Both the position numbers and the translations under genes were made by a program. This document shows, one piece after another, positions 913 through 17,023 of a stretch of 41,290 bases of DNA. The stretch is taken from the IMG/VR virus record IMGVR_UViG_3300017747_002462, positions 1 through 41,290 of that record; one strand, written 5' to 3'. The stretch comes from a virus (lineage: Duplodnaviria > Caudoviricetes). The notes below the pieces were generated by a model that was given only the letters and a program-made list of their open reading frames with translations, did no database searches and was not told the origin of the DNA. Every line of letters starts with the position of its first letter. Positions within the stretch are counted from its first letter, which is position 1.

Positions 913-1653
913 TCAAGCCGACCATGCAGAACCTCCTACGTTGCTGCGCTTCTTGTATTCACTCGGAGCCGTGCGGGCTTCCCTGAGCATCATCACGCCG
1001 TAGCGAGTGGCGGACATCAGGTCGTCTCGCAATTTGACGATCTTGCCGTCCTTGCGATGGTAGAGGCGGAATTCCTCAAACCAGTCATTCAGGCCGGCGA
1101 ACACCTTCAGCCGCCCCGTCTCCATGCGCTCGAGCATCTCCATCAGGCCAGCCTCGACACCGTTCCCGCCCTCGGCGTGCTCGGCCTTGTCGTCCAGCAT
1201 TTGCAGGCCGTGGGTCTTGTATTGCTCCTTGAGCTGGTCGCCGCTGCCCTTGTCGTGCTGCAGTCCGTCATGAGGCCAGGCCACAGGTATCCACTTGCCC
1301 CAAGCCGAGATGGCAACCGAGTGAATCGCAGGCACAGCCTCCTTGCGCCGATAGCAGGCGCGGACATACACGCAGTCAGTGTCTCGATCCCATGCAAGAG
1401 CAGCAGCAGCGGTCGGATGATCCCAGCCAAAGTCCATGCCGACGATCTGAGGCCAGTGCTTGGGAATCTGGATGGGCTGGCAGGTGATCAGCGATTCCTC
1501 GACCGGGAAGATCCGCCCCGAGCCCATGGTCGGAATGCCCTTGGCCCTAGCCTCGCGCTCGTGCGGTGGATAGCTCGCAATGATAGATGCGCGCTCAGCC
1601 TCGCTGTAGTGCTCGACGTCATCAATCGTCATGCTGGTGACGGAGCGGGTCAT
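913..1653 (-). CDS. terL: Terminase large subunit, C-terminal part (end of ATPase plus RNase H-like nuclease), P22 gp2-like
   Basis: MTIDDVEHY..YPPHEREARAKGIPTMGSGRIF, GMDFGWDHPTA, WPHDG, DDLMSATRY motifs typical of P22-type TerL. Confidence 0.92.
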   Translation of the reverse strand: MTRSVTSMTIDDVEHYSEAERASIIASYPPHEREARAKGIPTMGSGRIFPVEESLITCQPIQIPKHWPQIVGMDFGWDHPTAAAALAWDRDTDCVYVRACYRRKEAVPAIHSVAISAWGKWIPVAWPHDGLQHDKGSGDQLKEQYKTHGLQMLDDKAEHAEGGNGVEAGLMEMLERMETGRLKVFAGLNDWFEEFRLYHRKDGKIVKLRDDLMSATRYGVMMLREARTAPSEYKKRSNVGGSAWSA

Positions 1654-3864: not shown

Positions 3865-4326
3865 TTACTTGATTTTACAAGATTCAGCTATCCAGTGATC
3901 GATAGCCGCATTGATGAAAGCGGTTCGCGTTACCATCGCCGGCAGCATTCTCCGGCACCGATCAATCCGCTCAATGGTCTCGCTGCTGAGATAGAGCGTA
4001 ACGTGGTGCCCGGTTGCCGGCTTGGGCGGCATCCTGTCGAGCCCTAGCTCGAGTCCCTCAGCTATCCTCTCGGCCCGCTCAATGGCTTCCAGTGCCTCAG
4101 CGACCGTGGCCGAGAACCATTCGTCCTTGACGTGCTTTCCCGCCAGCTTGAGCAGCCGATGGGCTGTCCGCTCGATGAGCTCGGCGTTGGCCTTGATCTC
4201 GGTAAGGTGCGCGATGCCAGCGACGCCGCGGATCTCCTTGATCCGCTTTTCCACCCGGGTGGAGTGGCCGACTTTGACCAGGCCATTGTCGCCGTGGAGG
4301 ATGTAGATCTTGGCGTTGGCTCTCAT
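3865..4326 (-). CDS. GIY-YIG (T5orf172/MUG113-like) domain protein with C-terminal ribbon-helix-helix
   Basis: IYILH..LVKVGHS..VEKR..E..AH....EWF pattern; C-terminal VTLYLSSETIERID..TRTAFINAAI RHH pattern. Confidence 0.75.
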   Translation of the reverse strand: MRANAKIYILHGDNGLVKVGHSTRVEKRIKEIRGVAGIAHLTEIKANAELIERTAHRLLKLAGKHVKDEWFSATVAEALEAIERAERIAEGLELGLDRMPPKPATGHHVTLYLSSETIERIDRCRRMLPAMVTRTAFINAAIDHWIAESCKIK

Positions 4327-4888: not shown

Positions 4889-5596
4889 ATGGACGACGAG
4901 GATTTGAAGATGGATAAGGATACGGACGGTAAGCTATTCGCCGCCGCGCTCTATGTCATCACGGACATGTGGGGAAAAGAGATGGGCGACCTACAGCGCG
5001 CATCGCTTGCCAACCAAATCGTTCGCGAGATTGAGCGGCGCGGGATCGTCATGCCGGCTGCAGCAGCCGAGCCACCTAGCAGTGGTGATGGCGTCATATC
5101 TGATTACGTGATGGTGCCGCGCAAGGCATCTGACGAGATGGTCGAGCAAGCGCGCATGACGCTGCCGGGCATAGTCGACATCTGCGACGCTGACATCGAA
5201 GACATTTACGAGACGATGATAGCCGCTGCTCCCCCCTCTCCCCGCTCAGATGAGGGGAGTGGGTTGACACCTCACAGCGCGGCTGTTTCGGCTATCGGCT
5301 CCGCCGATAAAGTGGATTGGCGCCAGCGTTATTTCGAGGCGCGTGACGCTCTCTTTCAGTTCAAGTATCCGCCCGATCCTAAGCTGTTGCGTGAGATCGC
5401 CGACGAGATCGACTGCGGCCGCGATTGCAAACACGGCAATACTGAGTGGGACACCAACGCCTTTGTGTGCTCGCGTTCGGATAGCAAGGAAGGATGCGAC
5501 GGCGAGAAGGCGTCGTGCCTGCGTCAGTTTGCAGATGCCATCGATGTGTGTGCTTCACTACAGCGCGAAGCGCTAGGCGAAACTCCCGTGGAGTGA
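4889..5596 (+). CDS. Mosaic accessory protein of three modules (middle one has a VPR..S.EM...MIAAAP phage Eaa/DUF551-type motif; last one is Cys-rich)
   Basis: ORF 4838-5596, likely ATG at 4889; module boundaries coincide with TGAC-hairpin ends at 5096 and 5265. Confidence 0.7.
   Translation: MDDEDLKMDKDTDGKLFAAALYVITDMWGKEMGDLQRASLANQIVREIERRGIVMPAAAAEPPSSGDGVISDYVMVPRKASDEMVEQARMTLPGIVDICDADIEDIYETMIAAAPPSPRSDEGSGLTPHSAAVSAIGSADKVDWRQRYFEARDALFQFKYPPDPKLLREIADEIDCGRDCKHGNTEWDTNAFVCSRSDSKEGCDGEKASCLRQFADAIDVCASLQREALGETPVE
5050..5096 (-). repeat. Orphan TGAC-hairpin-TCG-hairpin end (E)
   Basis: Read inward: TGAC gccatc aCCAC-tgctag-GTGGc TCG gctgctgcagccg; shares gcagccgag.c.cctagc...tggcgtca with the right end of cassette B. 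Confidence 0.65.
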
Positions 5597-5603
5597 GCCG
5601 TCA
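5265..5603 (+). mobile_element. Putative in-frame cassette C (339 bp) bounded by inverted TGAC-hairpin ends
   Basis: Left TGACacctc-ACAGC-gcg-GCTGT-tTCG-gc-TATCGGC-tcc-GCCGATA; right (inward) TGACggctc-ACTCC-acg-GGAGT-tTCG-cc-TAGCGC-ttc-GCGCTG-tagtgaag. Confidence 0.7.
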
Positions 5604-5743
5604 CATACTCAATACCTCGCCTCCCAGCCGAAAGGCCACGGGAGGCTGAGGGCGTAGAAGGCCCTAAAATAAGCCGGCCCGACGAGGCGTTCGTAGCGCC
5701 AAGCCGGGCCTAGATCGAACCCTATCACGACTAGGAGACGACC

Positions 5744-6793
5744 ATGCAAAGCCGATACTACATCAATTCGCTCGCTTCAACCATCGGCGGTGCTATTGCG
5801 GCTGGTTCTGCAATCGCGCTGTTGACAAGGGACGCCCAGCAGACCGGGTGGACCTACGACCATTCGATGATGATCCCGCTCGTAGGGCTCACCATCCTGT
5901 TTGGGCACGAGTCGCTTCGTGCTCTGAAGGAGTTCAAGATCGTTTCGTGCACCGCGTTCCTTGCGCTCGCAGTGTTCGGATCCTCGATCGTGATCTCCGA
6001 AACCATGGGCCGTCGCGCCGAAAGCCGTGACGCCAAGGTAAGCTCTGCAACTAAGGACGTCGACCAGTACGCTTCCCTGCTGACGAACCTCGACAAGGCG
6101 AACAAGCTCGCAGCCGAGGCCGAAGGCTGGGTTGCCAATGAGTGCAAGACGGGCCTTGGCCCCAAGTGCCGCGGTGTCACCTTCACCCGTGACCAGCGGC
6201 TTGCCTACGCCGAGAAGCTGAGGAAGGACGCCGAGGCCCACAAAGCCCCGGCTCCGGTAGACAGCAAGGCGGATCGCGTTGCAGCCGTGGCGGCCCTTCT
6301 GGGCTTCCGGGCTGATGTGGCAAAGAAGGCGGTTCACACGTTCGAGCCGTTCGTGCTGCCGCTGTTCCTCGAGCTGGGGGCAATCTTCCTGTTCGGGTTC
6401 GGCGTTCAGCATCGGAAAGTGAAGCCCTCGACGCTTGCCGACACCAAGCAAACGTCGTTTGCCTTCGATCCTGAAGCACTACGCTTGCTGAAGGGTGATT
6501 TGCCGGAAAACGACCCGCCCAAAGGCGGCAAGCGTCGGAAAGAAGATCGTTTGCCAGCACGTTTGCCGGCCAATGTAGTCCAGCTCAGGCAGTCAGTTGC
6601 CGGCAAGCATCCGGTCCTGTCGGCTCTTGAAGTTGCTGGCAAGCCAATGACGAATACCGAGCTTGCCGAGGCAATGGGCGTTTGCGGTGGCGAGAGTACA
6701 AAGCGTCGCCGTGAAGTTGCTCACTTGCTGGACGAGGTGACCATCGGCAAGTTCGTGATGGTGTCACTAAAGGCTTGGAAAGCGACGGCCTAG
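5744..6793 (+). CDS. Membrane protein (about four TM segments, coiled region) with C-terminal HTH-like domain
   Basis: AGGAG RBS; hydrophobic helices; C-terminal PMTNTELAEAMGVCGGESTKRRRE. Confidence 0.75.
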   Translation: MQSRYYINSLASTIGGAIAAGSAIALLTRDAQQTGWTYDHSMMIPLVGLTILFGHESLRALKEFKIVSCTAFLALAVFGSSIVISETMGRRAESRDAKVSSATKDVDQYASLLTNLDKANKLAAEAEGWVANECKTGLGPKCRGVTFTRDQRLAYAEKLRKDAEAHKAPAPVDSKADRVAAVAALLGFRADVAKKAVHTFEPFVLPLFLELGAIFLFGFGVQHRKVKPSTLADTKQTSFAFDPEALRLLKGDLPENDPPKGGKRRKEDRLPARLPANVVQLRQSVAGKHPVLSALEVAGKPMTNTELAEAMGVCGGESTKRRREVAHLLDEVTIGKFVMVSLKAWKATA

Positions 6794-6819
6794 TTTTTGG
6801 TGACGCCAACAAAAACCTC

Positions 6820-6851
6820 AACCCTCGGCTCAGGCCGGGGGTTTTTCTTTC
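6820..6851 (+). terminator. Intrinsic terminator between convergent units
   Basis: AACCCTCGGC-tcag-GCCGGGGGTT followed by TTTCTTTC. Confidence 0.75.
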
Positions 6852-6947
6852 TTGATCACGATCGCATCAACTGACACGAGCCAGATCGTCAACAAGACGC
6901 CGGCAATCAGCCCTAGCAAGAACCAGCTCATACCAGCCTCTTTCCCC

Positions 6948-7154
6948 TCACGACCCGGCTTCGATCATGCCAGCAATCACATCTGCTGGCGCTTCTAAAA
7001 TCTCGACTGTGCCGTCTTGATGAATGATGAGAGGCTTTTCCTCGGGGTGAACTGCAATTATCCAGCCGTTGTATTTGGTTATGCGAGTGCCTGCGCGAAG
7101 CTCGCAGATGACCCTAGAGCCGTCACGCTTTGGCCAATGCTGCTCATCTGTCAT
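6948..7154 (-). CDS. Hypothetical protein (68 aa)
   Basis: ATGA-coupled chain of small genes. Confidence 0.6.
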   Translation of the reverse strand: MTDEQHWPKRDGSRVICELRAGTRITKYNGWIIAVHPEEKPLIIHQDGTVEILEAPADVIAGMIEAGS

Positions 7155-7309
7155 ACCAGCCTCTTGCCTATCACGACTTTCTGGACCTTACGGGCTGCCT
7201 TCCTCTGGGCTATGGAAGTTCTAAACGTGATCTTCCTCACAAGCGTAGGCTTACCGTCTATTATCTTGACGGTGTAGCCCTTGGTCTTGGGGCGGTGGCC
7301 GGTGGTCAT
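7151..7309 (-). CDS. Small basic protein (52 aa)
   Basis: MTTGHRPKTKGYTVKIIDGKPTLVRKITFRTSIAQRKAARKVQKVVIGKRLV; ATGA overlaps on both sides. Confidence 0.6.
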   Translation of the reverse strand: MTTGHRPKTKGYTVKIIDGKPTLVRKITFRTSIAQRKAARKVQKVVIGKRLV

Positions 7310-7542
7310 GATGTGACGCCTTCGGAAGACGCTTCCTCGATTGCGCTCAAGCCGCGCGGCTCGTCGAGTTTGTGAATGATGGCGAGAGCACGCAACTTCA
7401 CGACCAGCCTCGTGTCATCGTCCACTGCCGACCATGGCGTGCCGACTGTTGACGGATCAGTCTCCCAAAGAGCGAACGCCATTTCCTCAACATTCACTTG
7501 CGCGCGCAGCGCAGGCGAGGAACCCGGTTCCGAAGCTGTCAT
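7306..7542 (-). CDS. Cassette-encoded hypothetical protein (~78 aa)
   Basis: AGGAGG RBS; begins MTASEPGSSPALRAQ and ends EPRGLSAIEEASSEGVTS, the same terminal peptides as the 15409-15762 protein. Confidence 0.7.
   Translation of the reverse strand: MTASEPGSSPALRAQVNVEEMAFALWETDPSTVGTPWSAVDDDTRLVVKLRALAIIHKLDEPRGLSAIEEASSEGVTS
7314..7541 (-). mobile_element. Putative in-frame cassette A (228 bp) bounded by inverted TGAC-hairpin ends
   Basis: Ends read inward: tgacgccttcggaagacgcttcctcgattgcgct and tgacagcttcggaaccgggttcctcgcctgcgct (26/34 identical). Confidence 0.75.
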
Positions 7543-7551
7543 GTCCACCTC

Positions 7552-7881
7552 CTAAACTCTCGAAGCCATAGCCAATCCCTCTACAGCACGTCTCAGAGCC
7601 GCAGGATCAAGCCTAGGCTGGATTGGTGCCTGTGGCATTGGTTTGGCCGCTGGCGGGGCCTCCACGGGGCGGGAAACGATACGGGGAACGACGGGCGCCG
7701 GGGCGATTTCAACGGGGCGAACTGCAACCGGAGCGATTCCCATCGAGGCCAGATCATACCGGAACTGCCCCCCAGGCGTGCGGAAGTGTTTGATTTTACC
7801 AGCCTTTGCCCACCGTCGCAAGGTTTGCAAGCTGACTCCCAAGGTTTCTTTCGCGATTGCAGGCGTCACATAGTGGTTCAT
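7552..7881 (-). CDS. MerR/excisionase-type HTH protein with Pro-rich tail
   Basis: VTPAIAKETLGVSLQTLRRWAKAGKIKHFRTPGGQFRY. Confidence 0.8.
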   Translation of the reverse strand: MNHYVTPAIAKETLGVSLQTLRRWAKAGKIKHFRTPGGQFRYDLASMGIAPVAVRPVEIAPAPVVPRIVSRPVEAPPAAKPMPQAPIQPRLDPAALRRAVEGLAMASRV

Positions 7882-8030
7882 TGGTTCGGCTCCTTGATCA
7901 TGAGGACGTAGAACTTGTTTTCAGGCTGGGGGATTGCTTCCCTCCAGCCACGGGTTGCGTAGTCTTCGACCTTGGAAGGCTGGACGTAGCGCCAGGCGAT
8001 GTCGGAGCGCTTGAGTTGGCGGAGTTTCAT
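7878..8030 (-). CDS. Hypothetical protein (50 aa)
   Basis: ATGA-coupled on both sides (MKLRQLKRSDIAWRYV...). Confidence 0.55.
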   Translation of the reverse strand: MKLRQLKRSDIAWRYVQPSKVEDYATRGWREAIPQPENKFYVLMIKEPNQ

Positions 8031-8485
8031 CGATCCACTCCCGGCATTGAGCGGGCTAGTCCGCCGAGCGAGCGGTGCCCCATGTTCGCCTCGCGCCATG
8101 CCTTCGCCTCGAGTTCGCGCCGAGCCTGATCCGCCCAATAGTCGATCAAGCGTTTTTCCGGCATGAGGTCGCCGATCTGGATCTCGTCGATCTTCACGCC
8201 AGCCATGAGCCGCTGCTTGACGCCGAGCACGCAGCACTGGCGCAGCTCTTTCGCCCAGCCTTCGCGCTCCGACTGGATGGCCCACGGGTGATCCTTGAAC
8301 CGAGACCCCCACACGCCGGTCATGGGCTCGATTTCGCCGGTCTTCTCGCAGCGCTGGCTGCCGCCGACGTAGTGGCGGGCCATGCTGTCTGCGCGGTCTG
8401 GCGTCATGTCGATCCATGCACGCGCCGGCTTGTCTTCGCGCTTTTGGCGTTCTTCCTGAGCGCTGTAGCGAACTTTGGTCATCAA
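8027..8485 (-). CDS. Hypothetical protein downstream of the replication initiator
   Basis: 152-aa ORF coupled to rep. Confidence 0.65.
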   Translation of the reverse strand: MMTKVRYSAQEERQKREDKPARAWIDMTPDRADSMARHYVGGSQRCEKTGEIEPMTGVWGSRFKDHPWAIQSEREGWAKELRQCCVLGVKQRLMAGVKIDEIQIGDLMPEKRLIDYWADQARRELEAKAWREANMGHRSLGGLARSMPGVDR

Positions 8486-9411
8486 AAGCCCTCCGGGATC
8501 AGGCCGGCTTCACGGAGCCAACCTTCCTTGGTTTTCGCGTCTGGTTCGTTGGGGTGGCGGCTGATCGTGATCGGCGACTTGGCGTGCCGTCCGTTGCCGT
8601 AGCCTCCGTCATGGAGTTTCGAGAAACTCGCCGGCTGAAGCAGGAAGTCGAGCGTTGCCCGCCAGCCGCGGTCGTTGGTGCCGGTCAGGAAGGCTGAGCG
8701 CTCGAGATTGGCAAGTGCCTTGTCCCAGCCGTCTTGCCCGTACTCTTTCAGCCGAGCTGAGATCTTGCGCTGACGGTCTGGGGTGAGCTTTGCCGCCTGG
8801 GGAATTGCCACCCGCAAGGCCAGCGAATTGTAAGCCTCAAATGCCCGTAGGCATTCGAGAGGCGTGCCCCCCTTGGGGGGTAGGGGGGTATTACCTTCTT
8901 CTAATTGTTTATTTGTTAGTGTGTTAATTTCTTGGTGTTGGCTTGGTGTTGGCTTGGTGTTGGCTTGGTGCTTTGCCTGGGATTTTGCTTGGTGTTCGGC
9001 CTCTTGCATAAGTTGATATTTTGAGTAATTACATATAGTTACGATCTGGATTTGGTTGGTGTTGCGCTTGGTGGGATGGTTGGCGCAGTGGCGAGTGATC
9101 ATCGCTTCGTTCTGCAAACGTTTCAGAAACCAGCGCACCTTGTCCGCGGTCCATTTCCAGCGAGTCGCAAGGTAGGAATGGGCCGCCATCAGATCGCCAG
9201 GATCGAGGACGATAACCGTCCCCTTGTTCATGGCGCGGCGGGGCTCGTAGGAGGCCATCGCTAGTAGCGACAACCAAGCCTCTAGGTCGGTGTACGACCT
9301 GTCACCGACGCCGACGATGGGATGGGAGAAGATTTCACGGCTGACAGCGAACCAATTACCGGCCCGGTCATCCTCGATCGGCGGTCCGCCGTTGTGTGTA
9401 TGGTCCACCAT
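8482..9411 (-). CDS. Phage replication initiator (lambda O/DnaD-like organisation)
   Basis: N-terminal wHTH (WFAVSREIFSHP..AWLSLLAMA..LATRWKWTADKVRWFLKRL), IVTICNYSKYQ, internal iterons, C-terminal FLTGTNDRGWRATLDFLL. Confidence 0.85.
   Translation of the reverse strand: MVDHTHNGGPPIEDDRAGNWFAVSREIFSHPIVGVGDRSYTDLEAWLSLLAMASYEPRRAMNKGTVIVLDPGDLMAAHSYLATRWKWTADKVRWFLKRLQNEAMITRHCANHPTKRNTNQIQIVTICNYSKYQLMQEAEHQAKSQAKHQANTKPTPSQHQEINTLTNKQLEEGNTPLPPKGGTPLECLRAFEAYNSLALRVAIPQAAKLTPDRQRKISARLKEYGQDGWDKALANLERSAFLTGTNDRGWRATLDFLLQPASFSKLHDGGYGNGRHAKSPITISRHPNEPDAKTKEGWLREAGLIPEGF
8900..8998. repeat. Replication origin: 11-bp iterons CTTGGTGTTGG plus adjacent AT-rich tract
   Basis: Three tandem copies at 8931-8963, partial copies at 8964 and 8988; AT-rich 8900-8930; inside rep, as in lambdoid origins. 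Confidence 0.8.
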
Positions 9412-9439
9412 TTATCCACCGCTCGCGTTCAAAATGCTG

Positions 9440-9590
9440 TTGCATCTGTCCAGCGATGGTGGTAAATAACCACGTATCGCTGGTGTGATTCGACTTACCG
9501 GTCCTGTCCACCACTCGTCACCGCCAAGTGACCCACAAACCGCCAACCCAGTTTCCGAACCCTTCAGGCGCCAACCTGAGGGGTTCTTTC
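9440..9590 (+). ncRNA. Putative antisense small RNA upstream of rep (OOP/ctRNA-like position)
   Basis: TTGCAT-N17-TAAATA promoter-like sequence at 9440-9468; terminator GAACCCTTCAGG-cgccaa-CCTGAGGGGTTC-TTTC at 9557-9590; opposite to the rep operon. Confidence 0.5.
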
Positions 9591-9591
9591 G

Positions 9592-10002
9592 TTATGCGAC
9601 CACGTAAGCGGTCAACCGACGCAACTTCCCCTTGGAACGGTCCCGAACCTGGGTCTTGACAAGGAGTCGGCCTAGAGCTGCCCCAAGGGCGTTTTCAGCT
9701 ATAGGCGTCTGGCCGTCCTCGTCGCAGTGCCACAGGTACAGGTTCCAGATCCCCCGCGGTCCCGACCAGGCTATTTCGCCGGTCAATCCCTCGGCACGCA
9801 GGAACGAAACAAACTGACAGGCCGCGGCGTATGCCGGCAGAGGCGGGGAGACGGGCCTTGGAGGGCAACCAGCCTCCCCAACCTCCACCGTACGGTCGGC
9901 CACTGCTTGAGGCGCATCGCCCCGCACAGGCGGATTGGCCGGCCGTACCCCCAACATGCCCAAGCTCAGGGCTTTCAAAAACAAGCCACCTAACTCGAGC
10001 AT
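9592..10002 (-). CDS. Hypothetical protein (136 aa)
   Basis: GGGG RBS; in the early replication operon. Confidence 0.6.
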   Translation of the reverse strand: MLELGGLFLKALSLGMLGVRPANPPVRGDAPQAVADRTVEVGEAGCPPRPVSPPLPAYAAACQFVSFLRAEGLTGEIAWSGPRGIWNLYLWHCDEDGQTPIAENALGAALGRLLVKTQVRDRSKGKLRRLTAYVVA

Positions 10003-10066
10003 AAATTCCCCCGAAAAGACCCCAGGACAGAGTGCCGTCCGCCCTGGGGAGTTGGTCTTAGGGAGA

Positions 10067-10546
10067 CTACTCTACTGACACCAAATGCTCCTGCTTGTGG
10101 CACGGAGCGCAAAGCCAGATCACAGAGAGGGGCATCGAATAATCACGATGATGAGCGTGCACCTTCTCAGCGGAACATTTGGCACATGGCTCGCTGACTA
10201 GCGCGCCGGCGGCCAGTGCTCTTTCGACCATCTTGTGGGCTGCCCGCTTCTCCCGGTTGCGAGCATCCCATTCGCGCTTCTTGGCGTTTGCACGCCTTCC
10301 GCGCTCGGCAAGGCAACTCCTGCACACGGGTCCATAGCGACGCCTCCCCCTGCGTATGCCATAGGCGTGCAGTACTTTTTCCTCGTGGTGCTTTTCGCAA
10401 ACGGTCAATGAAGTCCCCTGCCTCGCTGCGGATCGCGGCAGGGGAGAGCAGATGGTCGGCACGGGCAGGCGTGCCGCAACGGGCCCTGACCCCCTCCGCT
10501 GCCGTTCATAGGCAGAGGCCCATCTGCTCACCGCTGGCGCGGTCAC
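10067..10546 (-). CDS. HNH-type zinc-binding endonuclease-like protein (start uncertain)
   Basis: CAKC..KVHAHHRDYSMPLSVIWLCAPCHKQEH. Confidence 0.7.
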   Translation of the reverse strand: MTAPAVSRWASAYERQRRGSGPVAARLPVPTICSPLPRSAARQGTSLTVCEKHHEEKVLHAYGIRRGRRRYGPVCRSCLAERGRRANAKKREWDARNREKRAAHKMVERALAAGALVSEPCAKCSAEKVHAHHRDYSMPLSVIWLCAPCHKQEHLVSVE

Positions 10547-10605
10547 TCACTGTACAAAACGTGAACAAAATCAATCAATTGCATACAACTAGTGCGGGGA
10601 TTATA

Positions 10606-10860
10606 TTACGCTGCGTACCCTGTAGACGTCGAATGATCGACGCGACCCCGTTTCACGGGCGACAAACGCTTGAGCACATCGAGCGTAACGCCCTTGATTT
10701 TGCGACGCTTTGCCTTCTTGGCGACGTCCACCCAGTAGTACGACGCGATTGACGAACGATGACGCATCAACTTGACCGTCCCCTCCCTCACGCCGATGTC
10801 CCGCGCGAACTCGCACAGGCTAGGCCAAGCGCCGATGATGTCCCGATGGCTTTGGTACAT
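10606..10860 (-). CDS. cro: Cro-like HTH regulator
   Basis: Divergent from cI; HRDIIGAWPSLCEFARDIGVREGTVKLMRHRSSI; ATG lies a few nt after the -10 element (leaderless). Confidence 0.75.
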   Translation of the reverse strand: MYQSHRDIIGAWPSLCEFARDIGVREGTVKLMRHRSSIASYYWVDVAKKAKRRKIKGVTLDVLKRLSPVKRGRVDHSTSTGYAA

Positions 10861-10867
10861 GCGACGC

Positions 10868-10907
10868 AGATTACGGTGCGTAACCCGATTTGTCAACCCG
10901 ATGTAAC
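10868..10907 (-). promoter_or_regulatory. PR-like promoter TTGACA-N17-TAATCT with two GTTAC-N5-GT(A/T)(A/G) operators
   Basis: Minus strand: gttacatcgggTTGACAaatcgggttacgcaccgTAATCT. Confidence 0.85.
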
Positions 10908-10934
10908 TTGCCAGCGCAACTTGATGTGTGACAA

Positions 10935-11591
10935 ATGAACACTCCAAGCGATAGACTAGTGCGTGCAAGATTGAATGCAGGGTTCAAGGGGCCTAGGGCG
11001 GCATCAAGAGCCCACGGCTGGAAAGAGCAGACGTACAAAAGTCATGAGTCGGGGGGCAGGCAGTTCAAGCTGGAGGCGGCACTTGAGTACGCCAGAGCAT
11101 TCGGTGTTAGCGCTGGATGGATACTCACGGGGGAACAGGACATCCCACTTGCTGATTCAGATACGGCTCGCGTCCCTATCAAAAGGGTGCCCGTTATGGA
11201 TACCATCGATGTTGACTCGCTCGTAGCCGTGGCGCGCGGCAAAAAACCTAAGTCTGACAGGGATATAACGATAGATTCGTCCCCTGACATTTCCCCGCGT
11301 GCATTCGCCATAGAGATAGGCGGCACGGCCATGCTGTCTAAAGAGGCTGACAGCTTCGCCGCGGGCGATGTCGTGGTGATAGATCCAGACGCGAAGCCCG
11401 AGCCTGGCTGTTTCGTGCTCGCCGTCGTCGGTAACGAAGCGATGTTCAGGAAGTACCGCCCACTGCAGCACAGCCAGCTCACCGCATTCGAGCTTGTACC
11501 GCTCAATTCGTTCTTCCCCACGGTTAAGGGATCGACGGATGACGGGGCTGTGATCGTCGGCAGAGCCGTGCGCCACATTCGCAAGCTGTGA
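10935..11591 (+). CDS. cI: CI-like repressor (HTH plus S24-fold domain with degenerate catalytic residues)
   Basis: RLVRARLNAGF..YKSHESGGR..YARAFGVSAGWILTGE HTH; C-terminal FAIEIGGTAM..GDVVVIDP..FRKY..LVPLN..IVGRAV. Confidence 0.9.
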   Translation: MNTPSDRLVRARLNAGFKGPRAASRAHGWKEQTYKSHESGGRQFKLEAALEYARAFGVSAGWILTGEQDIPLADSDTARVPIKRVPVMDTIDVDSLVAVARGKKPKSDRDITIDSSPDISPRAFAIEIGGTAMLSKEADSFAAGDVVVIDPDAKPEPGCFVLAVVGNEAMFRKYRPLQHSQLTAFELVPLNSFFPTVKGSTDDGAVIVGRAVRHIRKL

Positions 11592-11650
11592 ACAAGTTCC
11601 TATAGAAGCTGTGGATAAAATTTACCGCGCCATACTTTTTGTGCGCGCGG

Positions 11651-11690
11651 GTTACTTTTTGTTGACATGACGGGTTACGGAATGTAACTT
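11651..11690 (+). promoter_or_regulatory. PL-like promoter TTGACA-N17-TAACTT with GTTAC-N5-GTAAC operators
   Basis: gttactttttgTTGACAtgacgggttacggaatgTAACTT; same architecture as PR. Confidence 0.85.
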
Positions 11691-11720
11691 AGGCAAATCA
11701 CCAGCCTGGGGGACAGACCG

Positions 11721-12056
11721 ATGCAATGGCCTTTTGAACACGACATCTACGAAGGCGAGTTCTGGCTTGCGACGATCGAGGGCATTGCCACGATCGAGGA
11801 AAATACAGGCTCCGGCATTCACGACGACTGGACGGTCTCCAAGATCCAAATCAGCGGCGTTCGCGAGCGCGGCAAGTGGGAGATGTTCACGCTCTCCGAC
11901 ACGTCCGAGCTGTACGAGACGATCCTTCTCCAGATCCTGAACGAAGACCGCCACGACATCGACGACGAGTGGGCCACCTACATCGTTGAGGCTCGCATTG
12001 GCAACCGTGCCGACGAGCAGCGGGACAACATGATCAGCTTTGGGCTGCACTCATGA
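11721..12056 (+). CDS. Hypothetical acidic protein, first PL gene
   Basis: GGGGGA RBS; 111 aa. Confidence 0.7.
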   Translation: MQWPFEHDIYEGEFWLATIEGIATIEENTGSGIHDDWTVSKIQISGVRERGKWEMFTLSDTSELYETILLQILNEDRHDIDDEWATYIVEARIGNRADEQRDNMISFGLHS

Positions 12057-12181
12057 GCATCCTCGCAATCGTCCTGACGATGATCGGCGCGGGTCTCTCA
12101 TTGCTTGGTTTCTGCATCGGCTACCACGTCGGATGCAAAGACACGCGACAGGAAATCCTAGAACGCGACCCATGGGAATGA
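12053..12181 (+). CDS. Small membrane protein (42 aa)
   Basis: ATGA-coupled; MSILAIVLTMIGAGLSLLGFCIGYHVG... Confidence 0.55.
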   Translation: MSILAIVLTMIGAGLSLLGFCIGYHVGCKDTRQEILERDPWE

Positions 12182-12291
12182 CCACAGGCCTTCTCGGCTC
12201 AATCGTTCTCATCGCTCTCGTCTGCATTGTCGGCGTGATCGTTTGGGGCGTGAGGCAGATGCAGCCATTCGACCATAACCACTACGACTGA
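12178..12291 (+). CDS. Small membrane protein (37 aa)
   Basis: ATGA-coupled; MTTGLLGSIVLIALVCIVGVIVWGV... Confidence 0.55.
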   Translation: MTTGLLGSIVLIALVCIVGVIVWGVRQMQPFDHNHYD

Positions 12292-12301
12292 GGAGTGAGA
12301 G

Positions 12302-12514
12302 ATGCGCGGCACGTTCGACATTCACCCTGACGGCCAAGAGTTTGAGGCGAAGGTGGCGACTCACGTTGTCGGCTTGCCGTTCTCCACTCTCACGCTCTCA
12401 ATCGGTGACTTCAGGCTCAACCTTTACGGCGCAGCCGACGACGCTCTGAAGCTGATCCGCGTCTCGACTTTGCTGAATGAAATTTTCTCGAGTGAGAAGG
12501 TGGAGGCAGAGTGA
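12302..12514 (+). CDS. Hypothetical protein (70 aa)
   Basis: GAGGAG RBS. Confidence 0.65.
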   Translation: MRGTFDIHPDGQEFEAKVATHVVGLPFSTLTLSIGDFRLNLYGAADDALKLIRVSTLLNEIFSSEKVEAE

Positions 12515-13311
12515 TGAGTGAAGTAGCACACGCATACGCAACCGGAACCAGCGCTAGCACCGCTCTTGCTCCGCAGCCAGTCGTCGCCAGCGAAACCGCA
12601 GCGATCATGTCGATGATCGAGCGCATGGCAACCGATGCCAGCATTTCGATTGAGCGCGTAGAGCAGACATTCAGCTTCTATCAGCGCGTCCAAGCTGATC
12701 GTGCTCGGCAAGCGTTCGATGCGGCGTTCGCTGCGATGCAGCCGGAAATGCCGGTCATCGAAAAGCAGGGGACGTCTCACAACGGCAAGTACGGGCGATG
12801 GGAAGACATCGTTGAGAAGATCCTTCCCGTGCTTGGCAAGCACGGTTTTTCTATTCGGTTCCGCGTGTCGAATGAGACCGGGAAGATCAACGTCCGCGCC
12901 ATCCTTGCGCATAGAGACGGACACCGAGAGGAAACGGCGTTCGACCTTCCTGCCGACACGACGGGCAGCAAGAACGCCATCCAGGCAATCGGATCTTCGA
13001 CCAGCTACGGCAAGCGATACACGGCAAGCGCTCTGCTCAACATCGTCACCCGCGACGAAGACGATGACGGCAACGGTGGACCGAAGCAGCGCAAGTCATC
13101 GTCGGCCGCCAAGAAGGACGGCACGACCGAGAAATTCAACGCGATCAAAGTCGCATTCGAGACGGCGACGAGCGTCGATCATCTCATGGCGCTCAAAGAG
13201 CAGCACTGGACCGAAGTGGAGACACTTCCGGCGCGCTGGTTCGAGCTTCTTGAGGACACTTACAGCATCATGTTCGACGACCTCAAGACTGCTGAGAGGG
13301 CGCGAGCATGA
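12511..13311 (+). CDS. erf: ERF-family single-strand annealing recombinase
   Basis: KNAIQAIGSSTSYGKRYTASALLNI..DEDDDGN motif. Confidence 0.9.
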   Translation: MMSEVAHAYATGTSASTALAPQPVVASETAAIMSMIERMATDASISIERVEQTFSFYQRVQADRARQAFDAAFAAMQPEMPVIEKQGTSHNGKYGRWEDIVEKILPVLGKHGFSIRFRVSNETGKINVRAILAHRDGHREETAFDLPADTTGSKNAIQAIGSSTSYGKRYTASALLNIVTRDEDDDGNGGPKQRKSSSAAKKDGTTEKFNAIKVAFETATSVDHLMALKEQHWTEVETLPARWFELLEDTYSIMFDDLKTAERARA

Positions 13312-13649
13312 GCAACCGCCAGCGCATCGTCACAGAGGAAGAACTAGAGAAGGCCCTCGATTGGCTGCGGGATTCTGCGCAGCAAATGGGCCAGTGCAAG
13401 GGCCGTCTCGTCAAGGCCCAGCACATGCTCTCGCACATCGAAGCGCTTCTTACCCTTCGATCCGACCAGAGCAGCGACACAAAGCGGCGGGCCGAAGCAA
13501 GGGCGAGCGAAAAGTATCTCGAAGGCATCAACGAGGAAGCAGAGGCCGCTGCTGAGTACGAGAAGATGCGCGCTCTACGTGAGGCCGCGGCACTCAAGAT
13601 CGAGACGTGGCGCTCAGAGCAAGCCAACTACAGGGCTCTCAAAGTATGA
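13308..13649 (+). CDS. Helical hypothetical protein of the recombination module
   Basis: Coupled to erf; ends KIETWRSEQANYR. Confidence 0.7.
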   Translation: MSNRQRIVTEEELEKALDWLRDSAQQMGQCKGRLVKAQHMLSHIEALLTLRSDQSSDTKRRAEARASEKYLEGINEEAEAAAEYEKMRALREAAALKIETWRSEQANYRALKV

Positions 13650-13969
13650 GACAGGAATTCTCCCGCAAGACGAAGGCGGAAGCCCTGGAGCGCTCTGGAG
13701 GCTGCTGCTGTAGCTGCCGCATACCTCTGACGCCAGCGACGGGCATTGAGTTTGATCACCGCATTCCTGACGCGGTGAACGGAGCCAACAGCGTTGGCAA
13801 CTGCGAACCGCTTTGCGGAAATTGTCATGGCGCCAAGACGTCTGGAGACGTCAAGGCAATCGCCAAGACAAAGCGCATTCGAGACAAGCACTCAGGGGCC
13901 ATGAAGACAAAGCGGGGCTTCCGCGGCTGGCGGAAAATGAACGGGGACATCGTATGGAAAAACAACTGA
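13646..13969 (+). CDS. HNH endonuclease
   Basis: CCSC..EFDHRIP..GANSVGNCEPLCGNCHGAKT. Confidence 0.85.
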   Translation: MRQEFSRKTKAEALERSGGCCCSCRIPLTPATGIEFDHRIPDAVNGANSVGNCEPLCGNCHGAKTSGDVKAIAKTKRIRDKHSGAMKTKRGFRGWRKMNGDIVWKNN

Positions 13970-14160
13970 ACATCGACGACTTCAGCCACCTGCCAGTGCG
14001 CCAATGGAACTATCTGATGAAGGCTTTAATGGATCGAAACCTCGCAGGACGGATCGCAAACAACTCCAAAGACATCAGGGACCATCAGCGATGGGCTCGC
14101 GTTGTCGAGCTTCTCGATCGTGACATTGCTCGCATTTCGTCTCCGGGGTGGCGGGCATGA
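13954..14160 (+). CDS. Hypothetical protein (68 aa)
   Basis: GGGG RBS; in the coupled chain. Confidence 0.55.
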   Translation: MEKQLNIDDFSHLPVRQWNYLMKALMDRNLAGRIANNSKDIRDHQRWARVVELLDRDIARISSPGWRA

Positions 14161-14384
14161 CCAAGTCAGAACAGCGCAAGCTCGCCATCACTCTCGCAAG
14201 AGCCAAGGATCTGATCGTGGACGTGTCTGAAAAAGACTTCTCGCCATTCCGCAGAGCACGAGCCCGCGGCGAGATCGTCAACATAGACCAGGCTATCCAA
14301 CTAATTCAGGAATCCGTCCAGAGGGCGACGGTACAGTGGCGGCGGCCTTTTCGGGGTTCAGGTCGCCGCTCCGTTAGATCATAG
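14157..14384 (+). CDS. Hypothetical protein
   Basis: ATGA-coupled ORF. Confidence 0.55.
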   Translation: MTKSEQRKLAITLARAKDLIVDVSEKDFSPFRRARARGEIVNIDQAIQLIQESVQRATVQWRRPFRGSGRRSVRS

Positions 14385-14393
14385 GGGGATGAG

Positions 14394-14987
14394 ATGACAG
14401 ATGAATCGACGCCTCACAGCACGGCTGTTTCGGCTATCGCGCAAGAGCGCGATGTAGGGAAGCCAACTGCGTACATGGCTTTTTCCAACTCACGCCCCAT
14501 CAGCCGATGGCTGCAATGGAGCCCGATTGTCGCTGATGCTGACGCGGGATTGGTGACCATAGTGCCGCTCTTCACTACATCGCCAAAGGCGATAAGCGAG
14601 GCGCCTACCAGCGCCGAAGCTGTCAAACCAACCCCCTCGATAGAGGTAGGGGAAATGGTCGAGAGCTTGAAAACGCAAGCGATCTGGGTCACCGCCTATG
14701 CTGACGGCGACGACACGTCAATTCCGCCGACGCTAGAAGCTGCGTGTGGAAGCATCTCCAGAGTCAGCCGTGAAGCCGCCTCCCTCCTTATCGCTCTCGA
14801 TGCTGAGAGGGCGAGACTACAGGAAGCGCTGAAGCCGTTTGCTGAAGCGCTTAAGGGCAACTGGTCGCATCAACAGGATACGTCATCAATCGTCGCAGGG
14901 CTTCATAGCAACGATCTGCGTCTGACGTTCTTGTTGGGTGACTTCCGTCGTGCCCGCTCTGCTCTCCCTGCCTCAGATGAGGGATAG
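14394..14987 (+). CDS. Mosaic accessory protein (N-terminal KPTAY..VPLF module inside cassette D; C-terminal EALKPFA..LGDFRRAR module)
   Basis: GGGGG RBS; shares TPHS.AVSAI and SDEG peptides with the 4889-5596 protein. Confidence 0.75.
   Translation: MTDESTPHSTAVSAIAQERDVGKPTAYMAFSNSRPISRWLQWSPIVADADAGLVTIVPLFTTSPKAISEAPTSAEAVKPTPSIEVGEMVESLKTQAIWVTAYADGDDTSIPPTLEAACGSISRVSREAASLLIALDAERARLQEALKPFAEALKGNWSHQQDTSSIVAGLHSNDLRLTFLLGDFRRARSALPASDEG
14407..14625 (+). mobile_element. Putative in-frame cassette D (219 bp)
   Basis: Left cGACgcctc-ACAGC-acg-GCTGT-tTCG-gct-ATCGCGC-aaga-GCGCGAT-gtagggaag; right (inward) TGACagcttc-GGCGC-tggtag-GCGCC-TCG-ctt-ATCGCC-ttt-GGCGAT-gtagtgaag. Confidence 0.7.
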
Positions 14988-14991
14988 ATTA

Positions 14992-15162
14992 ATGAGCAAA
15001 GCAACAACACGACTGCTGGCTATTTCGATCGTGTGCGCAGGGTACGCCGGAATGATTTGCGGGGTGTGGCTCGGTCAATCGTCGATGTTCTACGCGGCCG
15101 TAATTCTGGCCATAGGTGGATCGCTGGCTGGATGGTGCAACTCGAGAAGGAAACAGAGATGA
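14992..15162 (+). CDS. Small two-TM membrane protein (56 aa)
   Basis: GAGGG RBS; two hydrophobic segments. Confidence 0.6.
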   Translation: MSKATTRLLAISIVCAGYAGMICGVWLGQSSMFYAAVILAIGGSLAGWCNSRRKQR

Positions 15163-15416
15163 GCCGTCTCGGAACCTGCAAGCACTGCTTCCACATTCAG
15201 GTGATGTTCGAGGTCGGCGGGCAGCCTCACGATCGAGAGAGCCGCGTCGATCTCCCAGAGGAATACACATGTCAGTGGCTTGAAACTTTCAAACCGCTGC
15301 CGCCATCGATACAGCGTCGACACGGCGGCTTCGACATCAGGCATGATGATTGCGACCTGTGCACTCAGTACGAACCAGCGTCCGCGTGGCCATCGAGAGG
15401 GACGAATAATGAATGA
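15159..15416 (+). CDS. Small Cys-motif protein (CKHC...C...CDLC)
   Basis: ATGA-coupled; 85 aa. Confidence 0.6.
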   Translation: MSRLGTCKHCFHIQVMFEVGGQPHDRESRVDLPEEYTCQWLETFKPLPPSIQRRHGGFDIRHDDCDLCTQYEPASAWPSRGTNNE

Positions 15417-15762
15417 GGATGTGACGGCTCAGCCCACGGGGCTTTCGCCTGCGCTGCGCGCGCAAGAGGAAAAAGACTTCGCGCCGGGCAGTCACGGTTG
15501 CCACGAGGCGCTGCACATGGCGAGCTTTTTTGCCGCTGCCGTTGACTCGAACTTGTGTGACCACCCAGCGATTGCGCAAAACCCAGCGTGGATGGACTTA
15601 GCGCAAGACGCGGCCGACGCTTTGTTCAAGCTCTACCAAGCCATCGGCAACGAACACATGAAGGAAATCCCAGACCAGCCGCGCGGCTTGAGCGCAGCCG
15701 AGGCGCCTAGCGCCGCTGGCGTCACACCTGAATCAGACACGCCCGCAGAGGCTGCGCCATGA
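15409..15762 (+). CDS. Cassette-containing hypothetical protein (117 aa)
   Basis: GAGGG RBS; VTAQPTGLSPALRAQ...QPRGLSAAEAPSAAGVT flanks a helical core. Confidence 0.75.
   Translation: MNEDVTAQPTGLSPALRAQEEKDFAPGSHGCHEALHMASFFAAAVDSNLCDHPAIAQNPAWMDLAQDAADALFKLYQAIGNEHMKEIPDQPRGLSAAEAPSAAGVTPESDTPAEAAP
15422..15724 (+). mobile_element. Putative in-frame cassette B (303 bp)
   Basis: Left TGACggctc-AGCCC-acg-GGGCT-tTCG-cctgcgctgcgcgcgcaag; right (inward) TGACgccagc-GGCGC-tag-GCGCC-TCG-gctgcgctcaagccgcgcggc; inner segments nearly identical to those of cassette A. Confidence 0.75.
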
Positions 15763-16052
15763 CAGAGATATCCCACAACGGCATCTACACTCCCGCTGAG
15801 GCGGCGGAACTAGTGGGCGTCAAGCTGACCTTCATCAAGACGCAGATCAAGGAAGGCCGTCTTACTGCGTATCGTCTCGGAGCGAAGGTATTGAGGATCA
15901 AGGGGAGTGACTTGTTGGCATGGTTCGAAGGGCAACGGATACCGTCGGCAAGTATGGCCTCATGCGAACCAAGCAGGGATGGTTTGCCTTCTGGGACGAC
16001 AAAGGTCGCCGAGCGCGCGGCCGGATCGGTCTCCCGTTCTCTGCGTCAGTAG
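15759..16052 (+). CDS. xis: Excisionase (HTH_17-like)
   Basis: YTPAEAAELVGVKLTFIKTQIKEGRLTAYRLGAKVLRI; directly before int. Confidence 0.8.
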   Translation: MTEISHNGIYTPAEAAELVGVKLTFIKTQIKEGRLTAYRLGAKVLRIKGSDLLAWFEGQRIPSASMASCEPSRDGLPSGTTKVAERAAGSVSRSLRQ

Positions 16053-17023
16053 GCGAGGCGAGGGCAGCGTTTGCGTTGTGGGTGCGAAGCCGAGATGCGG
16101 CGCTCGCACAGGATGGCAAGCTGACAGTCGGCGAGATCATGGAACGCTACATCGAGGACCGGCGCAAAGAGGGAAAGCGCTCCGACAAGATGCGGTTTCA
16201 ATGGAAGGCGCTCAAAGCGACTTTCGAGCATCTGCAACCCGGCGACCTCGTGAGCGAGATCATCGTCGAAGGCGAAAAGCGCACTCGCTGCCACAAGTAC
16301 GCGGTCGAGCGATCAGCCAAGGGGATAGCACGCGACACCATCCATTCCGAACTCGCTCTACTGAGGACGGCAATCAATTGGGCAGTCGCACATGGTCACA
16401 TCAACCGCGTGAAGGTGTGGGTGCCGAGTCCGGGAGAAGCGCGGCGCACGGCACTGGATGCCGACCAGATCGTGCGCCTGTTGGGAGCCATCCTTGAGGC
16501 GACGCCGCATATCCGGCTGCTCATGCTGATCGCGATGGCGACGGGCGCCCGTATGCAGGCCATCCTCGACCTGACGTGGGATCGGGTTGACCTCGAACGC
16601 GGTGTGATCAACTTCAACCACAAGCGCGAGCGGAGCATCCTCGACACGTCTCACCAGAAGGGGCGTGCCGTCGTGGACATCGGCGACGAGCTGATCGTGT
16701 GGCTGCGCAAGCACCAGGAGTTCGCCGGCAATCGTCCCTATGTGATCGAGTACCACGGCAAGAAGGTCGGGAGCCCCAAGAAGGCAGTCAGGGCCGTGTT
16801 CAAGCGGGCAGGTGTCGAAGGACAGTTCCTCGGCTTGCACGCCTTGCGTCACACGCTGGCGACGTCAGCAGCAGCGGCAGGGATAGACATGCGGAAAGTT
16901 CAACGCATGTTAGGCCACGACGACATCAGGACGACAGAGAGCGTGTACGTGGAGTTTCAGCGTGGGGCGTTGAGCGAAGTCGCAAGCGTTGGCGATGCAC
17001 ATATCAAGAGGCTGGCGAGATGA
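15920..17023 (+). CDS. int: Tyrosine recombinase/integrase
   Basis: ATGARMQAILDLTW (R), QKGR (K), HALRHT (H-x-x-R), LGH, VY catalytic set. Confidence 0.95.
   Translation: MVRRATDTVGKYGLMRTKQGWFAFWDDKGRRARGRIGLPFSASVGEARAAFALWVRSRDAALAQDGKLTVGEIMERYIEDRRKEGKRSDKMRFQWKALKATFEHLQPGDLVSEIIVEGEKRTRCHKYAVERSAKGIARDTIHSELALLRTAINWAVAHGHINRVKVWVPSPGEARRTALDADQIVRLLGAILEATPHIRLLMLIAMATGARMQAILDLTWDRVDLERGVINFNHKRERSILDTSHQKGRAVVDIGDELIVWLRKHQEFAGNRPYVIEYHGKKVGSPKKAVRAVFKRAGVEGQFLGLHALRHTLATSAAAAGIDMRKVQRMLGHDDIRTTESVYVEFQRGALSEVASVGDAHIKRLAR

Follow-up and report, generated by a model that had tools for sequence, protein, structure and literature searches.

Folded inverted ends around in-frame protein modules in phage genomes and their likeness to G4-type priming signals

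How phages gain and exchange their many small accessory genes is an old open question, and the process is usually ascribed to illegitimate recombination. In the mosaic genomes of lambdoid phages, short shared sequences at module borders, called boundary sequences, are the exchange points. Other described systems rely on folded DNA: the complementary-strand origin of phages G4 and alpha3, a single-strand initiation (ssi) signal with one copy per genome and three fixed stem-loops; repetitive extragenic palindromic (REP) sequences and their dimers (REPINs) with TnpA-REP; and the attC sites of integrons. Here we describe a folded single-stranded DNA (ssDNA) element, nine copies of which lie in virus record IMGVR_UViG_3300017747_002462 (Duplodnaviria; Caudoviricetes), a complete circular genome whose ends overlap by 123 nt; "the window" denotes this whole stretch of 41,290 nt. 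The element recurs with a common anatomy and covarying stems in unrelated tailed phages and in microviruses, around diverse cargos, with reading frames preserved and with empty alleles, and the cassette system that it forms fits none of the known families tested.

We favour, with a probability of about 0.52, the reading that the nine sites are copies of a folded ssDNA element bracketing swappable in-frame modules, that this element is likely a start signal of the G4 type for the host primase, and that phage annealing proteins likely use inward-facing pairs to capture the cargo and swap it. The ends and the reading frames that run through them are as follows.

4910..5596, plus strand: mosaic open reading frame (ORF) through the ninth end and cassette C
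5050..5096, minus strand: ninth end, unpaired, with one inner-stem mismatch and in-frame read-through, AAAEPPSSGDGVI
5265..5308, plus strand: cassette C left end (TGAC, hairpin 1, T, hairpin 2)
5554..5603, minus strand: cassette C right end, source of the TGA stop of the ORF
7306..7542, minus strand: 78-aa cassette A protein (P0137)
7314..7368, plus strand: cassette A end, downstream in the coding sense (PRGLSA...EGVT), with part of the outer stem broken
7493..7541, minus strand: cassette A end, upstream in the coding sense, ATG overlapping TGAC
14394..14987, plus strand: mosaic ORF holding cassette D
14407..14462, plus strand: cassette D left end, CGAC variant
14570..14625, minus strand: cassette D right end, with a 6-nt loop and in-frame read-through
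15409..15762, plus strand: 117-aa cassette B protein, with a cargo of about 65 aa
15422..15466, plus strand: cassette B left end, VTAQPTGLSPALRAQ
15673..15724, minus strand: cassette B right end, QPRGLSAAEAPSAAGVT

An earlier note, made from the letters alone, had claimed nine such sites, eight of them forming inverted pairs around four cargos (A to D), and all nine are present. A structural scan, with a pattern composed after the sites were known, recovered the eight paired sites at these positions, against a mean of 0.87 and a maximum of 3 in 60 dinucleotide shuffles. Covariance model R2, whose training set included three of the nine, recovered them all, the ninth at 5060-5102 (minus strand) with an E value of 0.008 and the next match at 0.38. 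Cassettes A to D measure 228, 303, 339 and 219 bp for A, B, C and D, respectively, all multiples of 3 and in the phase that the note gave.

Read inward, an end consists of a C-poor flank, YGAC, a first hairpin closed by RSC...GSY, a single T as the linker, a second hairpin, sometimes a third hairpin, and a purine-rich tail. The outer flank is almost free of C and has G at -4. The 3-bp outer stem RSC...GSY, which closes hairpin 1 and covaries, was missing from the earlier description. Of the architecture that this description proposed, the "TCG" and the 5-bp stem proved dispensable in the wider family; inverted pairs exist, but ends stand unpaired at some sites. The right end of cassette C supplies an in-frame TGA, so that the ORF terminates within the site.

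Other short segments share these borders in the window. A second segment type, a CCCC...TCAGATGAGGG-like hairpin translated as SDEG, occurs at 5230-5262, 14632-14652 and 14960-14985, adjoins ends at module borders and is found again in L031 and L069. The ORF start MDKD (4910-4945) is common to cassette starts in L038 and L051, and is followed by a possible decayed end (GGAC...TTCGCC), which may be the former partner of the ninth site.

Conservation of structure over sequence, as first proposed for the inner stem, extends to both stems. With four stem pairs left free, 8 of 14 IMG/VR pattern matches pair perfectly, and under a stricter pattern 24 of 33 matches in genomes and metagenomes show complete pairing, both at the free positions and at the outer pair (the 33 exclude the window's own three loci, and some contigs are present in both collections). 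Alignments of chosen sites pair in 99.5% (26 distinct sites) and 96.2% (13 sites) of cells, with two-sided changes in 5/8 and 6/8 pairs, respectively, and a covariation score reached by 0 of 500 shuffles, although the rows were chosen for pairing and are related to one another. Furthermore, orthologous sites swap both stem arms in place with pairing kept (L122 versus L056). Of the distinct triloop hairpins that follow hairpin 1, C-GNA-G is the opposite-strand sequence in 19 of 27; according to the available text of PMC13037366, C-GNA-G is a stable DNA mini-hairpin, and mini-hairpins mark the priming sites of G4, alpha3 and RSF1010. Because the loops of hairpin 2 read GNA on the strand ending in GTCA, we infer that this is the strand that folds as ssDNA.

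The element is a viral one. A general scanner, which required a C-free flank, gave 78 matches in 657,102 bases of 13 virus records and 2 in a reversed control; four of the 78 were judged false by eye, and the scanner overlooked two of the nine window sites. Among the carriers are microviruses and unrelated tailed phages of 40-110 kb. In 185,579 bacterial and archaeal genomes, screened with the strict type-1 pattern only, we found five matches, of which one, on a 4.7-kb contig, shows full pairing. A loose pattern, specific enough only to reveal high copy number, showed none in 301 sampled Pseudomonadota, a set that may lack the true host. The ends and cargos, compared by BLASTN with GenBank phages and PLSDB plasmids, had chance matches only, and Rfam gave no match. 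No close IMG/VR relatives of the window were found with the integrase or a 349-aa protein as the query; an alignment search returned 19 loci at 27-33% identity which, taken as a control, contain one weak site in 197,513 bases.

The cassette or domain-shuffling interpretation of the earlier note is borne out by paired ends with diverse cargo, preserved frames, empty alleles and conserved structure. Cargo B matches 49 other proteins over about half of the query, none of them flagged by a regular expression for the linkers, while four weaker cassette B matches carry both linkers around different middles. A profile built from 16 linker-bracketed proteins retrieved 59 clusters among 1.84 billion representatives (several of the 59 are the training proteins); both linkers scored in 42 clusters, the middles of which form 37 groups that are mutually unrelated by BLASTP. 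Pfam names 3 of 56 linker-profile proteins, namely Tad5 (residues 3-121 of 123, P0151), DUF3850 (1-77 of 77) and a helix-turn-helix domain, and the other 53 belong to no Pfam family. From the spans of Tad5 and DUF3850 it follows that near-whole domains are captured. In P0151 the two linker peptides enclose almost the whole of Tad5, an anti-defence (anti-Thoeris) domain.

In contigs from four other studies the cassette B ends are joined across other letters, and at the joints of known length 6 of 6 changes are multiples of 3 (+60, +57, -114, -90, -45 and +30; chance 0.0014). The same 3n bias is found in whole records, where 15 of 22 adjacent inward pairs are 3n; this becomes 11 of 18 (p 0.014) without the window's three and one homologue, and most of the 7 non-3n pairs are long multi-gene spans. 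Locus A is vacant in one contig (joint 7309-7571), is occupied by an unrelated gene without ends in L038 and holds a different cargo in a further contig; cargo C is bounded by different right hairpins and flanks in L069 and in two run X7 contigs. Like the lambdoid boundary sequences, the ends are short shared sequences at module borders that could serve as exchange points, but they are covarying structures, lie inside proteins and are spread over unrelated phage groups and ssDNA phages.

Not every end belongs to a cassette. Single ends lie between conserved structural genes (at L077 2631, for instance, where L065 has an empty allele at 68% identity), and tandem ends are seen, as is a 104-bp end-to-end unit at L077 4100-4203. 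Single ends of this kind, in L077 and L065, often beside a stop codon or ribosome-binding site, would be expected of a small selfish or regulatory REP-like repeat, such as an mRNA stabiliser or a protein-binding site, that lands at gene borders and shuffles cargo only incidentally, when its copies undergo homologous recombination; REPs that lie in frame inside genes are known (PMC3733652, in its available part). We consider this improbable. The ends occur in both orientations relative to transcription, their loops favour folding of one DNA strand, and such a repeat comes with no named means of spread and leaves the sharp in-frame capture of 37 unrelated cargo groups unexplained.

The 104-bp unit, together with inverted TGAC...GTCA termini, also recalls a DDE transposon or a miniature inverted-repeat transposable element, of whose terminal inverted repeats (TG...CA) the ends would be relics. 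This is very improbable in our estimation: structure and not sequence is conserved, no transposase lies between any pair examined, and, as the earlier note had said, target-site duplication is lacking, none symmetric over more than 2 bp being found at 4 of 4 cassettes.

Where near relatives are compared, homology breaks exactly at TGAC-G in two cases (L067/L047 and L072/L159, with flanks 96% and 99.7% identical); in other comparisons it breaks between the hairpins or beyond, and the ends are not strict transposon termini. These sharp breaks are what the main alternative would predict, in which the ends are structure-recognised recombination or cleavage sites, similar to attC or REP, for a host or helper tyrosine recombinase or HUH enzyme, with crossover at TGAC and with cassettes inserted or exchanged at G/T-rich secondary sites. 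The loose end at 7313 and the L065 empty allele, which reads TGAG where L077 has TGAC, point the same way. Furthermore, a tag, a bulged hairpin and tags-outside dimers make up the architecture of REPs (PMC6006769, PMC3733652), and attC clusters without an integrase exist in phages (PMC9892861), each as given in the available portions of these sources. Nevertheless we consider this alternative less likely, since the exchanges between the hairpins or further in do not follow from it, the place and polarity of the element in microviruses (below) remain unexplained by it, and REPs and attC have chromosomal reservoirs, whereas a single full-pairing match was among the five found in bacterial and archaeal genomes.

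The search for an enzyme bears on it as well. The earlier note had inferred that a recombinase or transposase recognises the ends, and this has so far gained no support: ends are also solitary, the points where homology is lost vary, both within the site and near it, and no recombinase, HUH or DDE gene is common to the carriers. A Y1 HUH transposase was found in 0 of 5 phage records, no protein family clustered in more than 6 of the 13 records (with a home-made gene caller that may miss small or odd genes), and Pfam revealed no recurring mobility gene beside the sites.

Comparison with described families leads away from them too. The ends are not attC, as already noted, since RYYYAAC/GTTRRRY boxes occur at 0 of 9 sites on either strand; the attC layout of one directly oriented site per cassette is also absent, inverted pairs being common and tandems present. 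The likeness to integron attC sites and to the phage clusters of attC sites lacking integron-integrases (CALINs) lies in structure kept over sequence, strand-asymmetric folding, an enzyme missing in the phages and gene-sized cargo that includes an anti-defence domain; in contrast, the present ends are inverted around the cargo, which is fused in frame. With REP dimers, REPINs and CGTC-tagged REPs they share a bulged hairpin with a tetranucleotide on its 5' side, tags-outside dimers, singles, tandems and occasional in-frame translation. They differ in a second hairpin, in being viral and not chromosomal, in spacers that are whole genes or domains (100-3,000 bp), in the lack of a nearby TnpA-REP and in a YGAC tag in place of GTAG, GTGG or CGTC (TGAC in 107 and CGAC in 5 of 112 sites, which were chosen on this tag). 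REP tags and high chromosomal copy number were thus not found (definitions from the available parts of PMC3733652 and PMC6006769 for REPs and of PMC9892861 for phage attC). The IS200/IS605 layout of same-strand ends with tnpA/tnpB does not apply to the inverted ends, and a TnpB gene near a site was seen in L050 only. There (6784-7887) the IS605-type TnpB gene terminates just inside an end with a broken second hairpin. Nor is the layout that of a shufflon, as the inverted phase closes no more than 19-69 codons from the four downstream ends, short of the far end. No description of the element was found in the literature searched, the coverage of which lacked most subscription papers, the classic ssi and G-site papers, and supplements.

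Three further candidates were rejected. A sigma-70 promoter, with TTGAC as the -35 box, was dismissed by inspection because the length of hairpin 1 varies from about 11 to 28 nt, and an IS605 right end because the GAA "guide" is missing in many variants. A hammerhead likeness, seen by eye in loci L041 and L045 only, fails the stem test in both. The repeated intergenic motif there (L041 203 and 874, minus strand; L045 413, plus strand) matches the pattern but not the stems and resembles a hammerhead core on the opposite strand; the L041 motif has no Rfam match.

The place of the element in microviruses is what indicates a priming signal. L083 and two genomes within L158 carry it once, in a long intergenic region and on the strand opposite the genes. 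The L158 record, of 11.3 kb, contains two or more different microvirus genomes joined end to end and is probably an assembly chimera. Of 20 GenBank microvirus relatives (19 picked by capsid likeness and one by DNA match), 18 have a nick-like hairpin, which from its motif we take to be the plus-strand origin. In L193 and L205 (48 and 21 nt, respectively) and in the two L158 genomes, TGAC-type sites lie 12-48 nt upstream of this hairpin, again on the strand opposite the genes, and L083 has one at the homologous place, so that polarity and intergenic place agree in 5 of 5 TGAC-type copies. A strict scan of the microvirus relatives showed no copy elsewhere or on the other strand. Intermediate variants exist as well: by eye, we found at this place a GGAC variant in L200, L204 and L206, a TGAT variant in L197, and in L204 and L206 a TGC-loop second hairpin like that of L205; L191 and L201 have hairpins that begin like the alpha3 origin. 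The intergenic spot would accordingly be the complementary-strand origin of these viruses.

At the G4 origin, DnaG and SSB suffice for priming, at a CTG that lies 3' of three stem-loops, and the first C is primer position 9 (PMC6783573, available text). The primer annotated in the G4 record lies on the same strand as the element does in microviruses, starts with AG, reaches GGAC-GGC and closes with GCC, after which a hairpin starting TATCGG follows. If the C of TGAC is set at position 9, the flank should have a purine at -5 and G at -4, with C absent in between. In 112 distinct flanks we found a purine at -5 in 84, G at -4 in 86 and C in only 2 of 336 letters at -4 to -2; YAG stands at the predicted start in 34 flanks, compared with 2-10 in background windows, and CAG in the exact G4 register in 7. 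The bias is the same in 61 flanks gathered before the C-free filter (1 C in 183 letters), and may be partly due to ribosome-binding sites and stop codons. The tandem stem-loops are on the template strand 5' of the start, as in ssi sites. The likeness to the G4 and alpha3 origins thus comprises tandem single-strand hairpins, mini-hairpin loops, a purine-rich C-free start followed by GAC-GSC...GSC, and the polarity in microviruses. Unlike these origins, the element has up to about a dozen copies per tailed phage in both orientations, a variable hairpin 1, an unpaired TGAC and a CAG (for the CTG of G4) in a minority of flanks, and is translated as linkers and brackets cargo.

Under the priming reading, DnaG with SSB would prime at the folded strand without a helicase; synthesis would begin about 5 nt outside TGAC and proceed inward, and a pair of ends would be arranged like two PCR primers, or like ssiA and ssiB of RSF1010. 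The latter are two inverted hairpin priming sites on opposite strands (PMC8567376, PMC13037366), but they are read by the plasmid's own RepB' within one origin and are not known to exchange cargo. In the phages, a short nascent strand bearing an end could then behave like a tailed PCR primer, pairing through its 3' tail with the border of a foreign gene and being elongated; two such captures on opposite strands would leave an inverted pair without duplication or transposase. Annealing of the Erf/Red type between the ends, of about 50 nt, may move cargos among loci and phages, and selection would retain in-frame fusions, the ends of which are translated as recurring linker peptides. Read in this way, priming explains why ends can be inverted without duplication or stand singly, why the inner junctions vary and why a dedicated enzyme is lacking, and a universal host enzyme agrees with the lack of both a shared phage enzyme and chromosomal copies.

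Several observations weigh against this reading, and its capture step is one that we infer. An Erf homologue clustered in only 5 of 13 records, the sharp TGAC-G breaks in the two pairs of relatives also fit a site-specific crossover, and the intergenic spot in microviruses may simply be the sole insertion-tolerant place. The TGAC type occurs in only 2 of the 20 GenBank relatives, most of which have other hairpins there, and CAG is in the G4 register in only 2 of the 9 window sites. Covariance model R1 matches neither the G4 nor the alpha3 origin. A flank-plus-hairpin score places the G4 origin third in its genome (9.4, compared with 17-26 for true sites) and the alpha3 origin, in register, outside the top three, and a 13-nt profile ranks them 14 of 11,128 and 74 of 12,148, respectively. 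Finally, the GGAC of G4 is paired within hairpin I, whereas TGAC here is unpaired.

More tentatively, these elements could represent enzyme-free, primase-driven gene capture, in which priming signals of ssDNA phages have spread among tailed phages with Hyphomicrobiales-like hosts. Inward pairs would act as natural tailed PCR primers and copy foreign genes, anti-defence domains such as Tad5 among them, into in-frame cassettes, which annealases would swap between genomes. A recognisable, covarying end at the junctions of dozens of unrelated modules makes capture and exchange directly testable, and with one cargo being Tad5 and nearly all others outside Pfam families, the linker peptides can be used to search for candidate counter-defence proteins. 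Should the ends be priming signals, the classic G4 origin becomes tied to gene mobility and the complementary-strand origin of a microvirus group is named; if they are recombination sites, a new ssDNA recombinase awaits discovery.

Among the 62 window ORFs scanned we found a repressor, an O-like initiator, an Erf-like annealase, an excisionase, a tyrosine integrase, a portal, a capsid and a terminase, and no primase gene. Two of these lie near the cassettes.

12511..13311, plus strand: Erf-like single-strand annealing protein, a candidate helper for exchange
15920..17023, plus strand: phage tyrosine integrase, without an orthologue common to the carriers

Because the closest named homologue of the integrase comes from a Hyphomicrobiaceae metagenome-assembled genome (59% identity), the host is probably from the Hyphomicrobiaceae group. 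A T5orf172-domain protein (3865-4326, minus strand) is outside the families common to at least four carrier records. In another record, L028, two back-to-back ends with a 19-bp AT-rich spacer (2236-2256) have the arrangement expected at a cassette junction. The large terminase of the window is split: ORFs 1892-2599 and 913-1653 (minus strand; span 913-2599) match consecutive parts of phrog_2 and are separated by an unrelated 81-aa ORF (1650-1895) that overlaps each by 4 nt.

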